A stretch of 57,694 bases of DNA from an uncultured archaeon (GTDB lineage Archaea > Aenigmatarchaeota > Aenigmatarchaeia > GW2011-AR5): assembly GCA_964456345.1 (NCBI GenBank), contig CAYVZO010000001.1, positions 1 to 57,694 on the forward strand, given 5' to 3'. How positions within the stretch are numbered: position 1 is the stretch's first letter; every line of letters starts with the position of its first letter. The notes below the pieces were generated by a model. It was given only the letters and a program-made list of their open reading frames with translations. It was not told where the DNA came from and searched no databases. Position numbers and translations under genes: made by a program. Shown in pieces: positions 19,524 through 51,966 of the stretch.

Positions 19524-19700
19524 ATGGCAGAAATGCTGGTAGTAAAAAGCAAGGTTAAGGAATATGCAAAAAAGAAGAAGATGAGCTTTGGCGGAGATGC
19601 TGCTGATGCTCTGAGCAGGGAAGTTGCAGCTTTGGTTGATAAGGCAATAGCCAGGGCCAAGGCAAACAAAAGAGCAACAGTAAAGGGAAGAGATATCTGA
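19524..19700 (+). CDS. Small histone-fold-like (DUF1931-type) protein
   Basis: MAEMLVVKSKVKEYAKK...FGGDAADALSREVAALVDKAIARAKANKRATVKGRDI. AGGAGG lies 7 nt upstream of the ATG at 19524. Confidence 0.55.
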   Translation: MAEMLVVKSKVKEYAKKKKMSFGGDAADALSREVAALVDKAIARAKANKRATVKGRDI

Positions 19701-19791: not shown

Positions 19792-19998
19792 TTACCCAAT
19801 ATACGAGTCATCTGGCAGAACAAGGTCTTCTGGTCTTGTCACGCTGTCGATATCAGGCTCTTCTGGTTCTTCTGTAATTGTTTTTCTTACCCTCCTACCA
19901 ACAGGTCCTAGATATCTGCTCGTAACCTTGTCGCCTTTTCTTATTGACTCGTAATAGTACTTTCTGCCATTGATGGTTTTGATGTGTTTGTTAGGCAT
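19792..19998 (-). CDS. Hypothetical small basic protein with acidic tail
   Basis: 68 aa. INGRKYYYESIRKGDKVTSRYLG, then an acidic, Pro-rich C-terminus. No family assignment possible. Confidence 0.4.
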   Translation of the reverse strand: MPNKHIKTINGRKYYYESIRKGDKVTSRYLGPVGRRVRKTITEEPEEPDIDSVTRPEDLVLPDDSYIG

Positions 19999-20028: not shown

Positions 20029-20177
20029 TATTTAAGGTTTTTGTCATTCGGGTGGATATTTCGGAAATGTCATGTTCATCCCCATGTTCATAATGCCAAT
20101 TCACACCCCTTCATTTCCACTGCAAATGTATTCATATAACAGCGTTATTGATATGAACAGCTAGAAATAGTCTAGGA

Positions 20178-22868
20178 TTACTTCTTTTTTTTCATTTTTG
20201 TTCCTGATGAACCACTGCAGCTTATCAGAAGTTCACCTCCGCATTCACATACTCCCTGGAGCGGTATCCTCCTGTAGGTCTTGTTGCATTTTTTGCATAT
20301 AAAACCTTCCCAGTCATCAACTACCTGCTCCTTTTTCTGTGGCCTGTATTCTATTTCTATGTCATGCTTCATCTTCCTTTTGTTTCCGTTCATGATGTCA
20401 AATATGCTGGTCTGTCTGCCATTCCCAAGAAGTTCGCTTTTCGTTATTCCTAGTGAAGCCAGGATTCTTTCTATTGGCGGGAATAGCTGGTTATGTATGT
20501 AATAATCAGAATCTATCTGGAGCCCTTTCTTTTTGACGTAATTCGGGTCTTCAGCTCTTTTAGAGAGCATCTGGTTGCCGCGGACTATGACAAAGTCTAT
20601 GCGCTCGCCTACGATGGGTTTGTTTTGGGGCTCCCGCTCTGCGATTTTCTTGGCAAGCTCTATGTGCGGAAGCGTTCCTGCATAGTTTTCAATGCTCTTT
20701 GTTATGCCTTTTGTAATCGTAAGCTTTTCTGCAGGTATCTCGTTGTTCCTCAGCTTTTCCAGCACCTCCCTTACCTTGTTTATGGCCTTTTCGATGTCAC
20801 CCTCTTTCAAAACGATTTCAAGTATCTCTATCATGGTTTCTGATACAAGGGGACACCAGTCCCTTCTCACTGTCTCTATGCCCTTCATTTCTATGCTGTC
20901 TTTCCACTCGTCATCCACTTTCTCGAACTTCCAGCCAGCATAGCGCTTTTTTGTCAGTATCAGGAAGGTGCGGTATATCTTCTCGAATTCAAGCTCGAGC
21001 TTGCCTGGCAATTTTTGTGTCACAAAATCTGATATTTTCTTGCCAAGTTCTTCTGCATCATCTAATTTTGTTATATTGGTCTTTAGAAATATGGAATCAG
21101 TATCACCATAAACAACTGTGACAGGGAAGTTGTCTTCTATGAGTTTTTTCGTCTTCACGATATTATCCCTTCCAAAAGCTGTTATGGTGTTTGCCACATC
21201 TATCATGTATAAGCGGGCTCGTATGTAGCCTGTATAGCCGTAGAATGAGTTGGACATATCCTTTAGCGCAAGCTGCCTGGCATTCAGTATGCGCCTGGCT
21301 TCGCCAGACTCCTTCTTCATCTCCTTCTTTATGCGCCCTCTTGCCACCATAAGCTCCCTTAGTATCCGTGGCATCACGCCTTCCCTTGTTTCCTTGTCAA
21401 CAAACAAGGCACCTGAAGGTGATTTTATAGCTGCTTTTTTTTCACCGTCCAAAAGAAGAGTGTCTGGCGATACGTTATAGGTACGCATTATGCTCGGATA
21501 AAGGCTCTTGAAGTCCAGGACAAGTATGCACCCCTCAGAGTGCAGTCCTTTTATCGGCTCAAGGACTGTAGCGCCCTTCAGCCCTTTTTTCGCCCTTTCC
21601 CTTGCGCGCTTTGACAGGACTGCACTGTTCGGCTTCGACGGCATTACAAAATTGCTTTCCTTGAATTCATGCAGTATTTTTATTTCCACCCTGGAAGACT
21701 GTCCTCCGAATGTATCCTGGAGCAGGAGACCCGAGACCTTAGAAAGCTCGAAGAATTTGTCAAGAAGCCTCACCTTTAGGAGCAGGTCCAGGTTCAGCTG
21801 GGCATCCTTTCTCGAATATTCAATAAATCTTTTCGGGTCTTTTTTCCAAAGCTCAGGCATTTCACCATAGGTGACGTCAAGCTTCTCCTCGTTTAGCAGC
21901 TCTTTGGCTATGTTCTTAAGTGTGTATCTGTGGAATTTAACCCAGGGGTCTCTCTTCAGTATCTGGTAAGGATCGACAACGACACGTCCCTGGACAATAC
22001 AGTCCTGCGTCATGCCGTATGTTCTCGTAAAGACATTTTTCTCACAGCGCCCGAAATTCTGCTGCAGCTTGTGGTGTTTTAGCCTTTCGAGTAGATAGGG
22101 GAAGTCGAAGTTGTTGCAGTTGTAGCCTGTTACGATATCAGGGTCGAAACTGTCTACTATCCTGAGGAATTCCTCAAGCATCTCCTTCTCGCTCGGGAAC
22201 CCCCTTGCATCTTTCCCCCTAAACGGCTTCGCGAGTATGACCAGGCTTTTCATCCCCCTGAATTCAGGCTTGAAAGCAAGGGACACCATTATGATCTGGT
22301 CCTTCTTTGCGTCAAGCGGCTTGTTCACGTCGTGAGGTATGCACTCTATGTCAAAGGAGAGATATTTGAGGTCGAGGTTTTCTTTCCTCTGGATTGCTTT
22401 TAGCTTCCTTACGTGGTAAGAGGGGACTTTCGACGCCTTTGTAAAGGCCTTCTCGCCCTCTGCCTCAACCCAGTCCATGCCATGCAGACCATGATCAACC
22501 ATGAACCTGTACTTGAACAGTATGTCCGCCTCATAAGAATCCTCGATCACGCCGTCAGCCAGCAGCTGGTCCTTTACCTTGGGCACGTTCTGCGGATTCG
22601 TGAGCGTAAGTTTGTAGAGCTTGGCCGGCTTTTCGTTGTACCCGAGCGGTATGAGCTTCTCAACCTCCTCTATTTTTATTATTTCTTTCATGTCTTCCAG
22701 GCTGGACAGCGCGAGTCTGTTTTTCTCGTTAAGCTTTACATAGAAATAGGGCATAAAGTCATCGTAGATGGCGCATACGGATTTGCCGTTCTCTGTCTTC
22801 CCAAACAGCCTAAGAACCGGCTTGCTGCCGTTTAGAAAGTAATCACTATCCAATAACTGAAAGAGCAT
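20178..22868 (-). CDS. polB: Family B DNA polymerase with about 65-aa C-terminal Cys-cluster (zinc-ribbon-like) extension
   Basis: Exo I FDIEC, Exo II NCNNFDFPYL, Exo III YSRKDAQL, motif A DFKSLYPSIM, motif B KDMSNSFYGYTGY, motif C VYGDTDS. C-terminal CKKCNKTYRRIPLQGVCECGG. Confidence 0.95.
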   Translation of the reverse strand: MLFQLLDSDYFLNGSKPVLRLFGKTENGKSVCAIYDDFMPYFYVKLNEKNRLALSSLEDMKEIIKIEEVEKLIPLGYNEKPAKLYKLTLTNPQNVPKVKDQLLADGVIEDSYEADILFKYRFMVDHGLHGMDWVEAEGEKAFTKASKVPSYHVRKLKAIQRKENLDLKYLSFDIECIPHDVNKPLDAKKDQIIMVSLAFKPEFRGMKSLVILAKPFRGKDARGFPSEKEMLEEFLRIVDSFDPDIVTGYNCNNFDFPYLLERLKHHKLQQNFGRCEKNVFTRTYGMTQDCIVQGRVVVDPYQILKRDPWVKFHRYTLKNIAKELLNEEKLDVTYGEMPELWKKDPKRFIEYSRKDAQLNLDLLLKVRLLDKFFELSKVSGLLLQDTFGGQSSRVEIKILHEFKESNFVMPSKPNSAVLSKRARERAKKGLKGATVLEPIKGLHSEGCILVLDFKSLYPSIMRTYNVSPDTLLLDGEKKAAIKSPSGALFVDKETREGVMPRILRELMVARGRIKKEMKKESGEARRILNARQLALKDMSNSFYGYTGYIRARLYMIDVANTITAFGRDNIVKTKKLIEDNFPVTVVYGDTDSIFLKTNITKLDDAEELGKKISDFVTQKLPGKLELEFEKIYRTFLILTKKRYAGWKFEKVDDEWKDSIEMKGIETVRRDWCPLVSETMIEILEIVLKEGDIEKAINKVREVLEKLRNNEIPAEKLTITKGITKSIENYAGTLPHIELAKKIAEREPQNKPIVGERIDFVIVRGNQMLSKRAEDPNYVKKKGLQIDSDYYIHNQLFPPIERILASLGITKSELLGNGRQTSIFDIMNGNKRKMKHDIEIEYRPQKKEQVVDDWEGFICKKCNKTYRRIPLQGVCECGGELLISCSGSSGTKMKKKK

Positions 22869-22915
22869 GCAATAGAATTTCGCGTAAACACTTTTATTGT
22901 TTTAGAGTTCTCGAA

Positions 22916-24034
22916 TTATATTTTCGACCTCATCAAGTCCACCTGGGCAGCCTCGCGGGTTTCTAAATCTATTACGACAGGCCTGAATTTTGCAAGAGGC
23001 GAGCCCGAATTTACGAGTGTGACGGACTTGTAGTTCATTATTTGCGGCTCGTGCGTGTGCCCAAAATGGACTATGTCAGGCACCTCTTCCAGAACAAGAT
23101 GGTCTTCGGCCATGACAGCCCTTGTTTTTCCGAGATGCCTCTTCTTCAGCATGCTGATGTCCATTTCATGTATAACAAGAATTTTTACGCCGTTTACCTC
23201 AACCATGGAAGGATTGCTGAGCGGTATTATTTCCCTGCTGTCAAAATTCATCGGCAGCTGAGGATACTCGTCGCCATCGACGTTGCCAGGTATCACGAAA
23301 ACCTTTCTGCCGTAGCAGTGCTTGGCAACCATATCATCCAAACTTTTTACGTCTGCTGTATCGCCTGCTATAAAAAGATATTTTATGTCCTGGTTTTCGA
23401 ACCAGGTGAAGAATTTCTCTATGTCAGCAGACGGGCTCTCATCCAGGTGAAGGTCCGAGATAAAGCAGACTTTCCCGTGCCCCTTGACAGGAGTCCTCAA
23501 CGGAATGTCCGGGTAGATGATTTCCTTGCCGAAAAGTATTTTACCCCCTGAAACCGCCCTTACAGCAACAACGTCGTCAAGCTCGAGGTCGTTCTTTTCC
23601 TCAAAAAGTATTGGTATTGTAGCTGTCTGGTCTTCAAGGTCGACGGCTACTCCTTTCTCTTTCTCCTTTACGTCCTTGACTATTCCTATAACATAAACCT
23701 CGTTGCGAAAGCTGTCCAGCTTGTTCAGTGAAATGAAATTCTTCTGGAGCCTCTTCATGAGTATATTCTTTGTTTTCTCGTACCTTGACATGTAGAACCG
23801 TACGAAATCGTCTGTAGAGGCCTCCTTGAGCTTCTCTGTAATGTTCTTTATCACTCTTACCTTTTCTGTTTTGGCGTCTCTCTGCACAAAATCCTGCGGA
23901 GTCAGAACGAGCTTTTCCTGCACGGGTTTGAGTTCTTCCTTCTGGTTTTCCAAGAAAGACAGAGCCTCTGGCGTAAGCAGCATGCCCTTGTCCAGATAAC
24001 TCTTAACAATATTCTCCTTTTCCATAAATCTCAC
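22916..24034 (-). CDS. DNA polymerase II (PolD) small subunit DP1-like / B-subunit family protein, short form
   Basis: N-terminal IVKSYLDKGMLLTPEALSFL and an OB segment VYVIGIVKDV...LEDQTATIPILF. Phosphoesterase motifs are ISDLHLD, IAGDTAD, PGNVDG, VIHE and GHTHE. Only 372 aa. Confidence 0.8.
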   Translation of the reverse strand: MRFMEKENIVKSYLDKGMLLTPEALSFLENQKEELKPVQEKLVLTPQDFVQRDAKTEKVRVIKNITEKLKEASTDDFVRFYMSRYEKTKNILMKRLQKNFISLNKLDSFRNEVYVIGIVKDVKEKEKGVAVDLEDQTATIPILFEEKNDLELDDVVAVRAVSGGKILFGKEIIYPDIPLRTPVKGHGKVCFISDLHLDESPSADIEKFFTWFENQDIKYLFIAGDTADVKSLDDMVAKHCYGRKVFVIPGNVDGDEYPQLPMNFDSREIIPLSNPSMVEVNGVKILVIHEMDISMLKKRHLGKTRAVMAEDHLVLEEVPDIVHFGHTHEPQIMNYKSVTLVNSGSPLAKFRPVVIDLETREAAQVDLMRSKI

Positions 24035-24040
24035 AAGAAA

Positions 24041-25255
24041 TCACTCAAAACGCTCGTCAAGGAAGGTCTTGACCTTTTCGAGAACAGAATCGTTTATGGC
24101 GAGCGATATTTCCCGTGTCCTGCCATAACGGCCCTTTGATATCACCTTTGCGTTTATTATACCCAGCATATCAAGCTCGCTTATAAGGTCGCTTACCCTC
24201 CTCTGTGTCAGGCATTTCAGAGCGTTGTCCTGGCATATCCTTTTGTAGGTATTGAAAACATCTCCTGTAAGGAGCCTCCTGTCAACCCATGTGCCTCCGT
24301 TGTTTTCGTGACCATTGCCAAGCCGTATTATGGCGTTCAGGACTGCTTGTGAATGTTTTGGCTGCGTCTTTATGGTTTCAGATACCCTATCCAGGTCGAT
24401 TTTCTCTTCAGCTGCATCAACGTGCCTTTCTTCTATATCCTGGTCGCCAAGGCGTTCGCTTATTTCTCCCGCCACCCTCAACAGGTCCAGGGCGCGCCTT
24501 GCATCACCATGCTCTTGCGCAGCAAGCGCTGCACACTTGTTTATCACATGGTCTTTTATCTCACAATTGAACCCCTGCTTTATCCTCTGAGACAAGATGT
24601 CCCTTAGCTGAACAGCGTCATAAGGCCTGAAAATCGCCTCTTCCTCACTAAGCGAGGACTTTATCCTCTGGTCCAGCGTATCGCGGAACGACAAATCATT
24701 TGTAATGCCTATGATTGTCACTGTGGAGTTCTTTAGGTCGGTATTAATCCGCGTGAGATTGTAAAGGAACTCATCTCCTATTTTCCTGAAAAGGTTGTCT
24801 ATCTCGTCCAGAACGATGATAAGTGCCTGTTTCTTCTCGTCTATAGTATCAAAGAATTTTCTGTAAAGAACATCGGTTGGCAGTCCTGTATCAGGCACGG
24901 TCTCGCCAAGCTCTTTCAGCATCTGTGCCAGCAAACGGTATTCTGTATCCGCCACCTTCTTCATCTTGCAGTTTATGTATATTGATGTTATGTTTCTGTT
25001 CTTTGTTATCTGTTTTAGCTGACTCAACACGAACTTCACTACAACTGTCTTGCCTGTCCCGCATGTACCATATATGAAAAGGTTGTTAACACTATATCCA
25101 CGAAGCGCAGGCGCGAGGACAGCGCTTATCTGTTTTATCTCCTCTTCCCTGTGCAGTATCTTTTCAGGAGTGAAATTAGCAGTAAGTGCGTTTTTGTTCT
25201 TAAAAATAGTGGGTTTTTCTAAATAAGTAGAAAATATATTATCCACAAACCACAC
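24041..25255 (-). CDS. cdc6: Orc1/Cdc6 replication initiator
   Basis: Walker A GTCGTGKT, Walker B IIVLDEID, GDARRALDLLR and a C-terminal winged helix. GTG start. Confidence 0.95.
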   Translation of the reverse strand: MWFVDNIFSTYLEKPTIFKNKNALTANFTPEKILHREEEIKQISAVLAPALRGYSVNNLFIYGTCGTGKTVVVKFVLSQLKQITKNRNITSIYINCKMKKVADTEYRLLAQMLKELGETVPDTGLPTDVLYRKFFDTIDEKKQALIIVLDEIDNLFRKIGDEFLYNLTRINTDLKNSTVTIIGITNDLSFRDTLDQRIKSSLSEEEAIFRPYDAVQLRDILSQRIKQGFNCEIKDHVINKCAALAAQEHGDARRALDLLRVAGEISERLGDQDIEERHVDAAEEKIDLDRVSETIKTQPKHSQAVLNAIIRLGNGHENNGGTWVDRRLLTGDVFNTYKRICQDNALKCLTQRRVSDLISELDMLGIINAKVISKGRYGRTREISLAINDSVLEKVKTFLDERFE

Positions 25256-25465
25256 CCCAAACTAACCTTAATTTCTTTTAGAAAGTATATAAATATATCT
25301 CTATCGGAAACTAAGGTTATTAACCTATATTTTTTGAAAACAAAAACCCCCCTATATTTCTTATAGAGACCTTGTGTTGTTGTTTTTCTTTCTATAACGA
25401 TGTTATAAGAAGCTATGGTTGTTGATTTTGACAAAGTTTTAAATTCTCCATAAGAAAACAGCCCC
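25256..25465. promoter_or_regulatory. orc1/cdc6 upstream region (promoter; classical position for an oriC, but short)
   Basis: 210 bp, AT-rich. It contains TAACCTTA / TAAGGTTA inverted copies and the 13-bp palindrome AGGTTATTAACCT. No ORB-like long repeats seen. Confidence 0.3.
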
Positions 25466-36681: not shown

Positions 36682-36896
36682 TCATTCCTGCTGAATTCTA
36701 ACCTACTAAACGGGTATTTTACCGCTTCTGGAAAGGCTTAAGTATGTTTCTGTGGTTAACTATAAGCAATATTTATCTGGTAGAAATAGGAATGAATGAT
36801 AATCATCGAGTGATTTCATGTTCATAAAATCGGCTGTTTATACAATGTACGATTAGACCTGTTTCTGCTAGTTTAACAAAAAGGAGTGTGATTATT

Positions 36897-38078
36897 ATGG
36901 CCAAGTTGGCCCAGAATTTCGCAAAGTACCTTATTTACGCAAAACTAGATGCAAAAGGCGTGGTCGAGAGACCTGACGTAATCGGAGCTATTTTCGGCCA
37001 GACAGAAGGCCTGCTCGGCAATGATTTGGACCTGAGGGAGCTCCAGAGGACAGGAAGAATAGGCAGGATAGAAGTGAACGTTAAGACGAACAGGGGAAAA
37101 GCTACCGCAGAAATAACAATACCTTCAAGCCTGGACGCGTCTGAAACATCGCTCATCGCTTCTTCTTTGGAAACCATAGACAAAGTAGGGCCGTGCGATG
37201 CAAAAATCTCTATAGAAAAGGTCGATGATGTAAGGTCGGTAAAAAGGCGTTACGTTGTTGACAGGGCAAAGGAGATATTGAAGAACATGGTGGAGATAGG
37301 CATACCTGATTCGCAGAAGCTTTCCGAGTCGATAAAAGAGGCAGTCAGGTCATGGGAGGTCTCTTCTTATTTCGGACTGAGCTGCGGCCCGAATATAATG
37401 GACACGGACGAGATAATAGTTGTCGAGGGCAGAGCGGACGTCATAAACATGCTGAAGAACGGCATCAGGAACGTAATAGCCATAGAAGGTAGCCGGATAC
37501 CCGAGGCTATAATAAAACTTTCCAAGGAAAAGGTTGTTACAGCATTCATGGACGGTGACCGCGGCGGTGACCTGGACCTGAAGAAACTGGTTGAAGTGGC
37601 TGACATAGACTTCGTAGCCAGGGCAGAGAGCGGAAAAGAGGTTGAGGAGCTCACGAAGAAACAGATATTCAAGGCCCTGAGGGAAAAAATACCTGTTGAC
37701 CAGGTTACAGACAAGACTGCTATGTCGGAAAAGGAGGCAGAGTCTACATCCGTTATCAGCCGTGAATTCGATGAGAAAAACCTGAAGCTCGTGAAGTCCC
37801 TACTTGAGGACCTCGTGGGAACGAAGGCTGCCTATCTTTTGGACAGCAACCTCCAGATACTGAGCAAGGTCCCGCTAAGCGAATTGGGCGACGTCATAAA
37901 CAACTTCAGCAACGTATATATGCTGATATTCGACGGTAAAGTGAACCAGTACATTACAGATCTTGCACTGCAGAGGAAGATATATTACATAGTAGGCATG
38001 GATATGAAAGAACCTGTAAAGACAGGGTCTGTAAAGGTGCTTACCATGGAAAACCTAACCAAAAGAAATGAACAGTAG
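36897..38078 (+). CDS. dnaG: Archaeal DnaG-type primase (Toprim)
   Basis: YLIYAKLDAKGVVERPDVIGAIFGQTEGLLG N-terminus, with Toprim motifs IIVVEGRADV and FMDGDRGGD. AAGGAG lies upstream of the ATG at 36897. Confidence 0.9.
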   Translation: MAKLAQNFAKYLIYAKLDAKGVVERPDVIGAIFGQTEGLLGNDLDLRELQRTGRIGRIEVNVKTNRGKATAEITIPSSLDASETSLIASSLETIDKVGPCDAKISIEKVDDVRSVKRRYVVDRAKEILKNMVEIGIPDSQKLSESIKEAVRSWEVSSYFGLSCGPNIMDTDEIIVVEGRADVINMLKNGIRNVIAIEGSRIPEAIIKLSKEKVVTAFMDGDRGGDLDLKKLVEVADIDFVARAESGKEVEELTKKQIFKALREKIPVDQVTDKTAMSEKEAESTSVISREFDEKNLKLVKSLLEDLVGTKAAYLLDSNLQILSKVPLSELGDVINNFSNVYMLIFDGKVNQYITDLALQRKIYYIVGMDMKEPVKTGSVKVLTMENLTKRNEQ

Positions 38079-47624: not shown

Positions 47625-48899
47625 ATGAATAAAATGGAAGAGGAGAGAAAAGAAAAGCAAGATAGCCAAGACCAGCAAACAACTGCGGCAAACGAGCCTG
47701 CAGAGGCAAAACAAGAAGAGAAGAAACTAGGGGATTTAGGCACCCCCAAAGAGCAAAAAGATAGCCAAGAAGCAATGCCCGAAAAGAGCATCCTAGAGAC
47801 GCCTCAAACACTAACAAAAGAAATCTCTGAGAAAATGCCCGAGAAGTCGAACAGGACCAAGGAATGGATGAATGAGATTGGATGGTCAAGAAGCCCTTTC
47901 ACCTTTTCCATAGTACCTGAGTTATTTGTCGGCTATATTGAACAGGTAAACAGCATTGTCACCCTGCTTGAGGAAAAACATAAAGTAATACTTTTGGTCG
48001 GGCCAACCGGGTCCGGGAAAACGACGCTCTTGAAATGGGTTTCAGGCAACCTTCCTGAAGAATTCGACTATATTTTTATAGGAAAACCCCCTGAAAGAGC
48101 AGAAGAATTCGTTGATATATTCAATGAAAAGTTCAGAGTTCCCTGGTACAAGAGGCTGTTTACCTCTAACATAAAAAACATACACCAGATACCTGAAAAA
48201 CTTAACAAGAAACTTAAAAAGCACCTGGTTATAATGTTTGACGAAGCACACGAATCCTCGATAGATGTTCTTGAATGGCTAAGGGTATTCAGCGACCAGG
48301 TAAATAATATGTCTGTCCTCATAGCAGGACTGCCAAGTTTTGATGAAAAATTGTCTGAGCTTGAGACACTCAGAAAAAGGATTGTGACAAAAACAGAGCT
48401 TATATCCCTGACAAAAGAAGAAACTACAGAACTCATAAGGAAAAGAATAGCAAGCGTAGGCGGGAAAGATCTGAGGCCGTTTAATGCTGATATCATATCG
48501 GAGATATACGAAAAAACAGGAGGCTTTCCTCGCGAGGTCATTCGTATATGCAATGACCTTGTGAATAAGGCAGTCAAAGCGTATAAATTCGACGTAACCC
48601 GTGACATGCTTATAGGTGAGAAGGCTGAGGAAAAGAAAGTTTCCTTGGACATTCTGGACAGGATGACGCCGCTTCAGAAAGAAATAATGCAGCTGCTTTC
48701 GAAGGGCGCTTACACACCAGGGGAGGTTGCGAACTCGCTCGATCTGAGCAAATACAAAAGCAGGCAGCATGCGGTGCGTTCGATAAACAATATTATGAAG
48801 AGGCTCATGGCCGAAGGCTTTTTGGAGAGAAGTAAGCGTGACAAGGCTTATATCTACTCACTGGTGCCGCAGCTGAAGACAATCCTGATAAAATCATAG
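47625..48899 (+). CDS. AAA+ ATPase with C-terminal winged helix (Orc1/Cdc6-like architecture; ExeA/TniB-like ATPase core)
   Basis: Walker A GPTGSGKT, Walker B VIMFDEAH, GGFPREVIRICN, and C-terminal LQKEIMQLLSKGAYTPGEVANSL...RLMAEGFLER. The first ~85 aa are a low-complexity K/E/Q-rich region. Confidence 0.75.
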   Translation: MNKMEEERKEKQDSQDQQTTAANEPAEAKQEEKKLGDLGTPKEQKDSQEAMPEKSILETPQTLTKEISEKMPEKSNRTKEWMNEIGWSRSPFTFSIVPELFVGYIEQVNSIVTLLEEKHKVILLVGPTGSGKTTLLKWVSGNLPEEFDYIFIGKPPERAEEFVDIFNEKFRVPWYKRLFTSNIKNIHQIPEKLNKKLKKHLVIMFDEAHESSIDVLEWLRVFSDQVNNMSVLIAGLPSFDEKLSELETLRKRIVTKTELISLTKEETTELIRKRIASVGGKDLRPFNADIISEIYEKTGGFPREVIRICNDLVNKAVKAYKFDVTRDMLIGEKAEEKKVSLDILDRMTPLQKEIMQLLSKGAYTPGEVANSLDLSKYKSRQHAVRSINNIMKRLMAEGFLERSKRDKAYIYSLVPQLKTILIKS

Positions 48900-49427: not shown

Positions 49428-50372
49428 CTAGTCTTCTATTCCCTTTTCAGTCACTGTGAAGATCGCTTCGCCTTCAGGCCTTGATGGTGAGTCGATCAGT
49501 CTGGCTATACGCTTGTTCTGTTTGCTTTTTCGCAGATAGAGGCGGAACGTGGATGCGTGGCCTAGGACATGACCGCCTATGGCTGTAGTTGGGTCGCCGA
49601 ACAAAATATCAGGACGAGCCATCACCTGGTTCGTCACGTAGATAGCAATATTGTTCGTATCAGCCATTCTTTGAAGGGCGTGTAAATGCCTGTTCAATTT
49701 TTGCTGCCTTGGTGCAAGCTCCCCCCGGCCGCTGTAATCTGAGCGGAAATGCGACATAAGGGAGTCTACGATCAATAATTTTACGTTCTGGTTCTTTACA
49801 ACGTCCTTTGCCTTGTCTACCAGCACGACCTGGTGATCGCTGTTGAAGACCTTTGCAACATATATGTTCTTCAGGACTTTCTTGGGGTCCAGGCCGCGGG
49901 TCTCTGCGATCTGCTTTATCCTTTCAGGACGGAAGGTCGATTCAGTATCCAGGAATATGCACTTGCCGTTTAAACCGCCTTTGTCTTTCGGGAGTTGGAC
50001 ATTTACAGCAAGCTGGAACGCAATCTGGGACTTGCCTGAGCCGAAGGCACCGTAACCCTCTGTTATTGCCTGTGTTTCCACTCCGCTGCCCAACAGGTCG
50101 TCAAGTGCTTGGGAACCGGTTGTAATCTTGCCTACACTTCCCCTTCTTTCCATCACTTCTTCAGCAGTCTTGAAACCCATGTCAAGCTTGCTTCTCGCAG
50201 CTTCGATTATTTTTTCCGCAGTTGCCTCGCCGATTTCGCAGGCAGAAGATATCTCGCCTGCAGATGCTGCTGCTATTGAAAGCAAATCCTCATAACCTGT
50301 CTCGCGCAGTTTTTGGGCGCCCTTCGGCCCAACTCCTGGGAGATCTTCTATAGTCAATCCTTTATCAACCAT
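49428..50372 (-). CDS. radA: DNA repair and recombination protein RadA
   Basis: N-terminal HhH ([12 protein letters not shown]), Walker [10 protein letters not shown] and Walker B LLIVDS. 314 aa. Confidence 0.95.
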
Positions 50373-50375
50373 GCT

Positions 50376-51335
50376 CTAACCTCCTGCCAAAATTTCTACC
50401 TCTTTCTTTACGTCGACATCCTCTATGTTGTTCACTATGAATTCCAGCCGGTCGAAATACGCGTTCCTTCTTGCCTGCCCCTGGAAGATGAACTCCTTGC
50501 CAAGGTCTATTCTGCCAAGCAGCGTTTTTTCGTTATCGAAGATTTTCTTTGCTTCGTCTTTTTTCATTCCGAGAACTTTTTCTGCATTTTCCCTGAAAAA
50601 CACAGCGCGCATATTCCCTGTTCCGTCGTCAATTATGCCGCTTATTACCATGCCGAAGTCAATCTCAGCTTCCGGATGGTCTTCACACTTGAAGTTGGTT
50701 TCCTCACGCACGCGTGCCCCGCATTTCGAGCACACCTCGTAGAAAGGATTCGTGTCAAACACATGAAGCAGCGAAGCACGCACCTCCCTGCTCTGGCCTT
50801 CCTTTATATTCGCGATGTCAGACCGCTCGTATTTCCTGGTTTCCACCATATCACCAATCTCTATTACCTCATCGCTTTTCTGTATAACACCGTATTTTCC
50901 CAACCGGATTTCAAGCCCGCCCAGTTTGTTTTCCCTTACGTAGCCACGAACGTTCACAACATCGCCTTTTTCAAATCCCTTTATTTTATCTATTTCATCG
51001 TTCCATAAAGAAAGACGGATAGAGCCGGTGTTGTCAGCTATGAACATATTGAGCACGCGGCCGCTTGCCTTTTCCGTGGAGAATTCCCGCACCTCTGATA
51101 TTTTAACTATCTTGCCAACGATGTCCACGTTCTGCATACCAGGCATTACGTTTTCTATGTTCAGCCTTGCCTGTTTCAAAAGGCTGATGCCAAGCTCCTT
51201 GGCAACTATATACGCTGCGCCTTCTTCTGATATGAGACCTGAAAGCTCCACCTGCTTGTCTGCTACCCTTTTCCTTATATTGCTTTCTGACAGACCAGAA
51301 TCAGCTGCTATTTTGCCGATAAGTTCCTCAATCAT
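50376..51335 (-). CDS. Replication protein A-like ssDNA-binding protein (OB folds plus zinc finger)
   Basis: N-terminal SGLISEEGAAYIVAKELGI, OB folds and CSKCGARVREETNFKCEDH. The start at MIEELIGK is preferred. Confidence 0.75.
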   Translation of the reverse strand: MIEELIGKIAADSGLSESNIRKRVADKQVELSGLISEEGAAYIVAKELGISLLKQARLNIENVMPGMQNVDIVGKIVKISEVREFSTEKASGRVLNMFIADNTGSIRLSLWNDEIDKIKGFEKGDVVNVRGYVRENKLGGLEIRLGKYGVIQKSDEVIEIGDMVETRKYERSDIANIKEGQSREVRASLLHVFDTNPFYEVCSKCGARVREETNFKCEDHPEAEIDFGMVISGIIDDGTGNMRAVFFRENAEKVLGMKKDEAKKIFDNEKTLLGRIDLGKEFIFQGQARRNAYFDRLEFIVNNIEDVDVKKEVEILAGG

Positions 51336-51392
51336 GCGACACACCCTGAATAAACAGGCATTAGTATATAGAACCCAATACATTTAAAGATT

Positions 51393-51602
51393 CTATTCGT
51401 CTAGAATCTTTCTTGCAAGCTTTATGTCGCGTTTCATGATGGTCCTGCGGTTTCCATGTTTTGACAGTTTTTCAGCTTCTAAGGCGATGAGCTTGGTTTT
51501 TTCTTCCATTATTTTCCCAAGTTCAGATGCGGCCTTGTCAGAAACACGCTTAGCGCCCACGCTTTTGAACAATCGCCTTATCGGCTGCAGGGTCAAAACC
51601 AT
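51393..51602 (-). CDS. Archaeal histone (HMf family)
   Basis: 69 aa. LQPIRRLFKSVGAKRVSDKAASELGKIMEEKTKLIALEAEKLSKHGNRRTIMKRDIKLA aligns by eye with HMfB. It is the internal Met of the longer listed ORF. Confidence 0.9.
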   Translation of the reverse strand: MVLTLQPIRRLFKSVGAKRVSDKAASELGKIMEEKTKLIALEAEKLSKHGNRRTIMKRDIKLARKILDE

Positions 51603-51675
51603 AATAATATTTTGTTCGAAAATATTTAAACCAGAATATATATAATATATCATATAGGGTGCTGAGGCAGGTGTC

Positions 51676-51966
51676 ATGACAGTAAAAACAGAGCTTGAAG
51701 AGCTTTTTCTGAGGAAGAAACCCGTGAAGCTACTCCTTAACATAAAGATGAAGAACAGTACGTACATATCTACACTGGCCAAGGACACGGACTGTACGTA
51801 TTCGCATACTGTAAAGCTTCTGGATTTCTTTAATAACCTGGGTCTCGTGGATTTCGAGAAGGCAGGACGAATAAAATACGTGAGACTGACGCAGGATGGC
51901 GAAAGCCTGGCAAACGATTTTGAATCCGTCCTGAGGAAGTTTAGCAAACTTAAACCAAGGAAGTGA
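51676..51966 (+). CDS. Winged-helix transcriptional regulator (ArsR/TrmB-like)
   Basis: [43 protein letters not shown] is an HTH-plus-wing pattern. Divergent from the histone gene. Confidence 0.6.

Follow-up and report, generated by a model that had tools for sequence, protein, structure and literature searches.

Which polymerase replicates the genome of an archaeon that carries a family B DNA polymerase (PolB) gene where its origin-proximal cluster would be expected to encode DP2, the large subunit of PolD? This question is raised by a 57,694-nucleotide stretch of DNA (contig CAYVZO010000001.1 of GenBank assembly GCA_964456345.1; hereafter the window), which represents an entire contig (57.7 kb) from the genome of an Aenigmatarchaeota (DPANN) member. 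Three of its genes encode Orc1/Cdc6, a short protein resembling DP1 (the PolD small subunit) and a PolB. A preliminary description started from the premise that cdc6, DP1 and DP2 lie together at oriC in Pyrococcus, which agrees with the oriC-cdc6-DP1(-DP2) linkage documented in Thermococcales and other Euryarchaeota (PMC2643942), and it proposed that PolB and the DP1-like protein could form a holoenzyme of eukaryotic type. Our analysis supports, with high confidence, the view that this is an origin-proximal Aenigmatarchaeota cluster composed of oriC, orc1/cdc6, a DP1-derived B-subunit and a PolB of the B6-aenigma1 or PolB-DP2CTD type (CTD, C-terminal domain), in which the latter pair replaces PolD as the replicase.

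Both names of this PolB type come from earlier studies. Kazlauskas et al. (2020, NAR, PMC7544198) defined the PolB group B6 and its subgroup B6-aenigma1, reported DP2 to be absent in most sequenced Aenigmarchaeota, recognised an Aenigma-specific group of inactive DP1 proteins, and proposed both that the B6-aenigma1 PolB had replaced DP2 and that the B-subunits of eukaryotes may trace back to a lineage of this kind. A subsequent survey (Nat Ecol Evol 2025, PMC12680538) described Aenigmatarchaeota as lacking DP2 while keeping DP1, and named their polymerase PolB-DP2CTD. In both Aenigmatarchaeota and Baldrarchaeia, DP1 was found to bind PolB-DP2CTD, not canonical PolBs, by AlphaFold3 prediction and yeast two-hybrid assay. 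The same work called the Aenigmatarchaeota CTD 'degenerate' and concluded that the two-finger 'B6-aenigma2' sequences are contamination from Baldrarchaeia. The novelty implied by the preliminary description is therefore lost: the PolB group and the dead DP1 were published in 2020 and the interaction was measured in 2025, making the window cluster another member of a recognised system and not a discovery.

Gene content and source lineage

The genes in question are:

25255..24041, minus strand: orc1/cdc6, 404 residues
24034..22916, minus strand: DP1-like gene, 372 residues from a GTG start (369 residues in the public gene call, which begins at Met4)
22868..20178, minus strand: PolB gene (family B DNA polymerase), 896 residues, the longest open reading frame (ORF) of the window

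The gap between orc1/cdc6 and the DP1-like gene is 6 nt, and that between the DP1-like gene and PolB is 47 nt, exactly the co-directional arrangement first described. Pfam scans of about 50 window ORFs revealed glycosylation, mevalonate-pathway, transport, RadA, RPA and histone genes; neither a DP2 domain nor a second PolB was found among them, in keeping with the original statement that the window holds no DP2.

Relatives of the DP1-like protein and PolB are confined to a single lineage wherever a name is attached. For the DP1-like protein, 426 relatives of about 350-375 residues are detectable, and every named one is assigned to a Candidatus Aenigmarchaeota/Aenigmatarchaeota archaeon. The best 120 PolB relatives (52-68% identity) are likewise of Aenigmarchaeota type wherever named, and a search of GTDB genomes with one protein returned one locus, from an Aenigmatarchaeota metagenome-assembled genome. 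For the two proteins together, the nearest homologs bearing these lineage names are 50-68% identical, and the nearest recorded sequences are at most ~68% (PolB) and ~61% (DP1-like) identical to those of the window.

PolB combines an intact catalytic core with a DP2-type zinc finger

The PolB core is that of a complete family B polymerase, with Pfam matches to DNA_pol_B (385 bits) and DNA_pol_B_exo1 (119 bits). All exonuclease motifs are intact (Exo I FDIE, residues 172-175; Exo II, NxxxFD, 250-258; Exo III, YxxxD, 351-356), as are the polymerase motifs A (DFKSLYPS, 452-459), B (KxxxNSxYG, 536-544) and C (YGDTDS, 587-592) and the KKRY motif (640-643). Among structures in the PDB, the core scores similarly against Thermococcales PolB (~388 bits) and the human Pol delta catalytic subunit (373 bits, in one stretch covering residues 13-812). 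Beyond the thumb domain follow a PIP-like motif, a charged linker and a four-cysteine (Cys4) finger:

20391..20414, minus strand: PIP-box-like motif QTSIFDIM (residues 819-826), as read from the sequence
20235..20303, minus strand: PolB C-terminal zinc finger FICKKCNKTYRRIPLQGVCECGG (residues 856-878), homologous to DP2 Zn-III

A pattern G-[RH]-Q-x-[ST]-[LI]-x-x-[IVA]-M around the PIP-like motif recurs among PolB relatives, and QTSIFDIM may bind PCNA.

The 'C-terminal Cys cluster' of the preliminary description resolves into one CxxC-x12-CxC module (C858-x2-C861-x12-C874-x-C876), with 20 residues separating the last cysteine from the C-terminus. Two DP2 models of NCBIfam match this tail (TIGR00354, E 1.6e-5; PRK04023, E 2.9e-5). 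As a single sequence it aligns with residues 1128-1160 of Thermococcus kodakarensis DP2 (6knb_B, E 0.0017), and a profile built from 32 PolB tails strengthens the match to residues 1128-1158 of the same chain (E 8.6e-8) and extends it to residues 1120-1150 of Pyrococcus abyssi DP2 (E 6.2e-7). The next matches of the profile are unrelated zinc fingers at E values of 0.005 or above, and no CTD of a eukaryotic catalytic subunit was detected with it in the PDB. These sequence comparisons identify the PolB tail specifically as a homologue of Zn-III, the finger in the DP2 C-terminal domain through which DP2 docks on DP1.

The module is a fixed feature of the family. Following examination of 120 PolB relatives, the Cys4 motif was present in all 118 that are full length, as CxxC-x10-14-CxC in 115 and as CxxC...CxxC in the remaining 3. 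DP2 itself runs some 120-165 residues past the finger; PolB retains the finger only and lacks the helical region of the DP2 CTD. Inteins (PF14890, PF14528) occur in roughly one-eighth of the nearest PolB relatives, which reach 1300-1390 residues (P0141, P0144, P0150, P0151, P0165 and others); the window PolB has no intein.

The DP1-like protein has lost the proofreading histidine

The DP1-like protein has the domain order of DP1, with the DP1 N-terminal helical domain, an OB fold (residues ~110-173) and a reduced phosphoesterase (PDE) domain (~185-365). The NCBIfam model for the DNA polymerase II small subunit (NF003118) matches residues 4-228 with E 1.6e-44. In Pfam, the PDE region is matched best by Metallophos_2 (residues 188-348, E 1.3e-17), with DNA_pol_E_B at E 3.7e-4. 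DP1 chains in the PDB match at E ~4e-15 in two stretches, comprising the N-terminal/OB part and the DP1-specific C-terminal half of the PDE domain, where the protein aligns with the DP1-specific sequence LKxRHL...EEVPDxVxxGHxH. An AlphaFold2 model computed from an alignment of 28 family members (pLDDT 89.1, pTM 0.81) was compared with known structures using Foldseek. P. abyssi DP1 ranks first (E 4.8e-27, TMq 0.72). The B-subunits of Pol delta, alpha, epsilon and zeta from human and yeast come next (E ~1e-17), and free phosphoesterases appear only at E > 1e-7.

The departure from an active DP1 lies in motif III of the PDE domain:

23273..23290, minus strand: motif III PGNVDG (residues 249-254), with Val252 at the position of P. 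abyssi DP1 His451 and Mre11 His85

The equivalence of Val252 and His451 is set by motif position, without an explicit alignment to P. abyssi DP1. Motif III thus reads GNVD in place of GNHD, while motifs I (DLH), II (GD), IV (H289) and V (GHTH) are kept, so that the protein lacks the full set of five PDE motifs, including the GNH[DE] histidine, that marks a proofreading DP1. In P. abyssi DP1, H451 (the equivalent of Mre11 H85) is essential for nuclease activity (PMC4996933). The earlier characterisation of the gene as short and bearing a degenerate nuclease motif is borne out on both counts, its 372 residues comparing with DP1 model lengths of 481-650 and the degeneracy amounting to the V252 substitution with the other four motifs retained.

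The metal ligands were surveyed in an alignment of 119 sequences, made up of the window protein and 118 full-length relatives. No aligned sequence (0/119) has a histidine at the GNH[DE] position of motif III, and the motif III asparagine is kept in 43. The other PDE ligands (DxH, GD, H and GHxH) are each kept in 78-102 of the 119, and the residues that are invariant across the family occupy non-catalytic positions, W211, K298, R299, D320, N334, K336 and R360 among them. As the motif III histidine is lost family-wide and the invariant residues are non-catalytic, the protein is best seen as a DP1 derivative without proofreading activity that is conserved for something else.

A canonical PolD encoded elsewhere

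It could be argued that canonical PolD persists in this organism, with the DP1-like protein serving a DP2 encoded elsewhere and PolB acting as an accessory or repair polymerase whose Cys tail has some other role. The genome is represented here by a single contig, cdc6-DP1 linkage without a nearby DP2 is common in Euryarchaeota (PMC2643942), and DP2 is absent in 'most', not all, Aenigmarchaeota, with one such sequence included in a DP2 alignment (PMC7544198). However, the proofreading histidine is missing from all 119 DP1-like sequences, and a PolD assembled with such a subunit would lose proofreading. Furthermore, the PolB tail is specifically the finger by which DP2 docks on DP1, and the 2025 survey both found Aenigmatarchaeota to be without DP2 and measured the binding of their DP1 to PolB-DP2CTD (PMC12680538). 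We therefore consider a persisting PolD very unlikely.

The cluster lies at a putative origin and its order is conserved

The first gene of the cluster encodes an Orc1/Cdc6, matched by NF001625 (489 bits), TIGR02928 (404 bits, cut-off 181) and the Pfam domains Cdc6_C (E 4.6e-25) and Cdc6_lid (E 1.7e-20). It comprises an AAA+ module with Walker A (GTCGTGKT, residues 63-70) and Walker B (VLDEID, residues 148-153), a lid domain and a C-terminal winged helix. The region upstream of orc1 is:

25256..25465: putative replication origin, a 210-nt intergenic stretch with boxes resembling the origin recognition box (ORB)

The ORB-like box TCTCYATMRGAAA occurs in three exact copies inside 160 nt, at 25298-25310 (plus strand), 25357-25369 (minus strand) and 25445-25457 (plus strand). 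The middle copy is followed by a G-string, TATAGGGGGG, yielding a full ORB at 25347-25367 on the minus strand. Allowing up to one mismatch, TCTCYATMRGAAA occurs 6 times in the window where 0.87 occurrences would be expected, for a pattern chosen once the boxes had already been noticed. In 13 related loci, canonical ORBs (TCCACAGGAAA-N-GGGG) are likewise present, at 100-400 nt upstream of orc1. The intergenic region upstream of orc1 is thus a likely replication origin, and the presence of ORB-type boxes upstream of orc1 both here and in relatives would place the cluster close to the origin, as the preliminary description had assumed. Another full ORB-like element, TGCAGTGGAAATGAAGGGG, is located at 20106-20124 (minus strand), 54 nt 3' of the PolB stop codon. 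An equivalent was not found at that position in relatives, and this element may be due to chance or be lineage-specific.

Conservation of gene order was assessed by a metagenome scan and eight exact look-ups of related loci. The order orc1, DP1-like, PolB on one strand is seen in loci L001, L002, L004, L010 (here with a 1.6-kb gap), L014, L017, L020 and L021-L026. Nearly every related locus with enough flanking sequence keeps the three-gene order, and the short contigs are all consistent with it. The DP1-like proteins of loci with the cluster are 36% to 60% identical to that of the window; the adjacency is hence not peculiar to this assembly, a point on which the proposal had been made to depend. 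The wider context is also conserved in relatives, where genes for HMG-CoA synthase, thiolase and DUF35 precede the cluster and those for TctA and NAC follow it.

This conservation bears on the origin of the polymerase. B6 PolBs have been suggested to stem ultimately from a mobile genetic element (PMC7544198), and it is conceivable that PolB, perhaps together with its partner, forms part of an integrated virus or another mobile element and not of the chromosomal replisome, and that its adjacency to DP1 is incidental; the inteins in some PolB relatives and the AAA_14/DUF4143 gene inserted in L026 would be in line with this. Against it, the same housekeeping context and the ORB boxes at orc1 accompany the cluster in relatives with DP1-like proteins only 36-60% identical, and the Pfam scans of the window ORFs found no integrase or capsid genes nearby. 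Among 50,697 phage records, the closest PolB reaches only 22-26% identity and no record matches the DP1-like protein, so that a recent viral origin of either protein finds no support in this collection and was rejected. An incidental, element-borne PolB is accordingly extremely unlikely, while an ancient mobile-element origin of PolB is possible and would leave its present function unaffected.

According to a further reading, the DP1-like protein would be a YfcE/Metallophos_2-type enzyme, active as a phosphoesterase or nuclease independently of the polymerase. This reading can appeal to Metallophos_2 (and not DNA_pol_E_B) being the protein's best Pfam match and to the DxH, GD, GN, H and GHxH residues kept in the window protein, but is hardly credible given an N-terminal domain and OB fold that are DP1-specific (NF003118), a PDE segment that aligns with DP1-specific sequence, an overall fold whose match to DP1 and B-subunits exceeds that to free phosphoesterases by 10-20 orders of magnitude, and metal ligands that drift across the family, in contrast to the invariant non-catalytic positions.

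Proposed mechanism

The DP1 N-terminal domain tethers PolD to GINS/CMG in Thermococcus. In the model we favour, replacement of PolD by the PolB/DP1-like pair, PolB would supply both polymerase and 3'-5' proofreading activity, as suggested by its full complement of catalytic motifs. The Cys4 finger would descend from DP2 Zn-III, on the basis of its specific sequence homology, and would dock in the PDE/OB region of the DP1-like protein, by analogy with the DP2 CTD on DP1 and eukaryotic CTDs on their B-subunits. The DP1-like protein is presumably no longer a nuclease, with the motif III histidine absent family-wide and the other ligands under relaxed constraint. It would instead act as an architectural subunit, with its N-terminal domain linking the polymerase to GINS/CMG. 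Taken together, these steps lead to the proposal that the pair replaces PolD as the replicase, in the manner of a minimal catalytic-subunit/B-subunit module of the eukaryotic Pol delta/alpha type.

Several observations weigh against this model or limit it. The Pfam scans that found no DP2 cover a single contig. In PolD, DP2 contacts DP1 to a large extent through the helical part of its CTD, and because the PolB tail keeps the finger without this helical part, its binding mode on the DP1-like protein may differ from that in PolD. Since four of the five metal-binding motifs remain, the window DP1-like protein may also still bind metal to some extent or be weakly active. PolB is inverted and located ~2.7 kb downstream of the DP1-like gene in one lineage (L011/L012), and in L026 an unrelated AAA_14/DUF4143 gene (L026 6142-7599) separates the DP1-like gene from PolB; strict operon organisation is therefore not obligatory.

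Relation to known replicative polymerases

The closest counterpart is the published B6-aenigma1/PolB-DP2CTD-DP1 system of Aenigmatarchaeota. It shares the lineage, the short inactivated DP1 and the lack of a nearby DP2, and the same role has been proposed for it, with PolB in place of the DP2 catalytic core and DP1 bound via the retained finger. Nothing essential distinguishes the window cluster from this system. With one finger, no helical CTD, a putatively dead DP1 and an Aenigmatarchaeota context, the cluster matches B6-aenigma1 as judged from its sequence. The Baldrarchaeia (Asgard) pair of PolB3-DP2CTD and DP1 has the same architecture, in a lineage without DP2 but with DP1 (PMC12680538). 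Baldrarchaeia keep a full DP2-type CTD, whereas that of Aenigmatarchaeota is the one termed 'degenerate' (PMC12680538), consistent with the finger-only tail of the window PolB.

PolD of P. abyssi and T. kodakarensis (6HMS, 6KNB) has a small subunit homologous to the DP1-like protein in both sequence and fold, and its Zn-III, lodged between the OB and PDE domains in 6HMS, is homologous to the PolB tail. The origin-proximal order of cdc6, DP1 and large-subunit gene in Thermococcales is also the same as that in the window. In contrast to PolD, the window catalytic subunit is a family B polymerase and not the two-barrel DP2, the PolB tail is devoid of the helical DP2 CTD, and the PDE-containing partner is reduced (372 residues versus 481-650). 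As the equivalent of H451 is lost, proofreading would reside in PolB and not, as in PolD, in the DP1-type subunit.

The eukaryotic polymerases delta (p50/Pol31), alpha (p70/Pol12) and epsilon (p59/Dpb2) likewise pair a B-family subunit bearing a Cys-rich tail with a dead, DP1-derived subunit of OB and PDE domains. The eukaryotic-like arrangement put forward for this locus is supported in every part that could be examined, with one correction of detail: the B-family PolB and the inactivated DP1-derived subunit are both there, and the tail holds one metal module and not a CysA and CysB pair. A eukaryotic CTD consists of CysA, CysB and a helical linker, whereas the window tail has a single Cys4 module of the CysB/Zn-III-like kind, without CysA or a helical CTD. 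Moreover, no further subunits are known for the window pair, unlike the eukaryotic holoenzymes.

A small gene downstream of PolB and other features of the window

A further conserved gene lies on the 3' side of PolB:

19792..19998, minus strand: small conserved gene, 68 residues, 179 nt downstream of PolB

Its product contains a three-stranded beta-sheet module (residues 4-32 in an AlphaFold2 model), a basic patch, a variable acidic linker and an invariant C-terminal Tyr-Ile-Gly. The invariant module reads HIKxINGRKYYYxSIRxGxKVTSxYxGP. The 59 homologs are from Aenigmarchaeota-type contigs wherever these are named, and some are tagged DUF6788. A position directly 3' of PolB is usual, as in L002, L004, L017, L021, L022 and L024. 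No significant fold match was obtained for the AlphaFold2 model (best E 1.5). Homology to PBP1 or PBP2, the Sulfolobus PolB1 subunits, was considered and rejected: the protein shows neither a Cys motif nor a winged helix (PMC5418573), and no fold match. It is at most a candidate member of the polymerase system.

A more far-reaching interpretation is that the oriC-orc1-DP1-PolB order, like the oriC-cdc6-DP1-DP2 order of Thermococcales, is a fossil of in-situ displacement, in which PolB displaced the catalytic body of a resident DP2 while the 3'-terminal Zn-III codons were kept; separately, the protein of 57-80 residues encoded downstream of PolB would be an unrecognised third component of a minimal eukaryote-like polymerase. 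We regard this as speculative and rather unlikely.

Other genes of the window are recorded here as side observations:

19524-19700, plus strand: ORF of 58 residues (MAEMLVVKSKVKEYAKKK...), with conserved counterparts close to the cluster, in either orientation, in L004, L014, L021 and L025; its nature is hinted at only by a weak histone-fold match (CENP-X, E 0.16)
36888-38078, plus strand: Toprim_4 protein of 396 residues, possibly a DnaG-like primase
47625-48899, plus strand: STAND-like ATPase (AAA_22/ATPase_2) of 424 residues with a possible C-terminal winged helix, not clearly an Orc1/Cdc6
49428-51947, minus strand: second group of DNA-transaction genes, namely RadA (49428-50372), an RPA-like OB-fold protein (50376-51383) and a protein of 184 residues (51393-51947) with a long N-terminal extension and a histone fold in its last 65 residues only

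Significance

Within a system that is already known, the window and its relatives may add two items to the record, the conserved oriC-orc1-DP1-PolB order and the small conserved gene downstream of PolB. No statement of the orc1-DP1-PolB order occurs in the main text of PMC7544198 or PMC12680538, or in the supplement text of PMC7544198 (figures not covered), and the searchable text of the two papers makes no mention of the small gene. The locus places the cluster directly at a predicted origin, with a gene order conserved across the phylum and a small conserved gene that often follows PolB. The proofreading histidine is absent from every family member examined, and the tail keeps the zinc finger alone. 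This is one of only two archaeal cases in which a family B polymerase carries a captured DP1-docking finger of PolD together with a dead DP1 partner. As this architecture is that of the eukaryotic replicative polymerases, the system bears on their origin.

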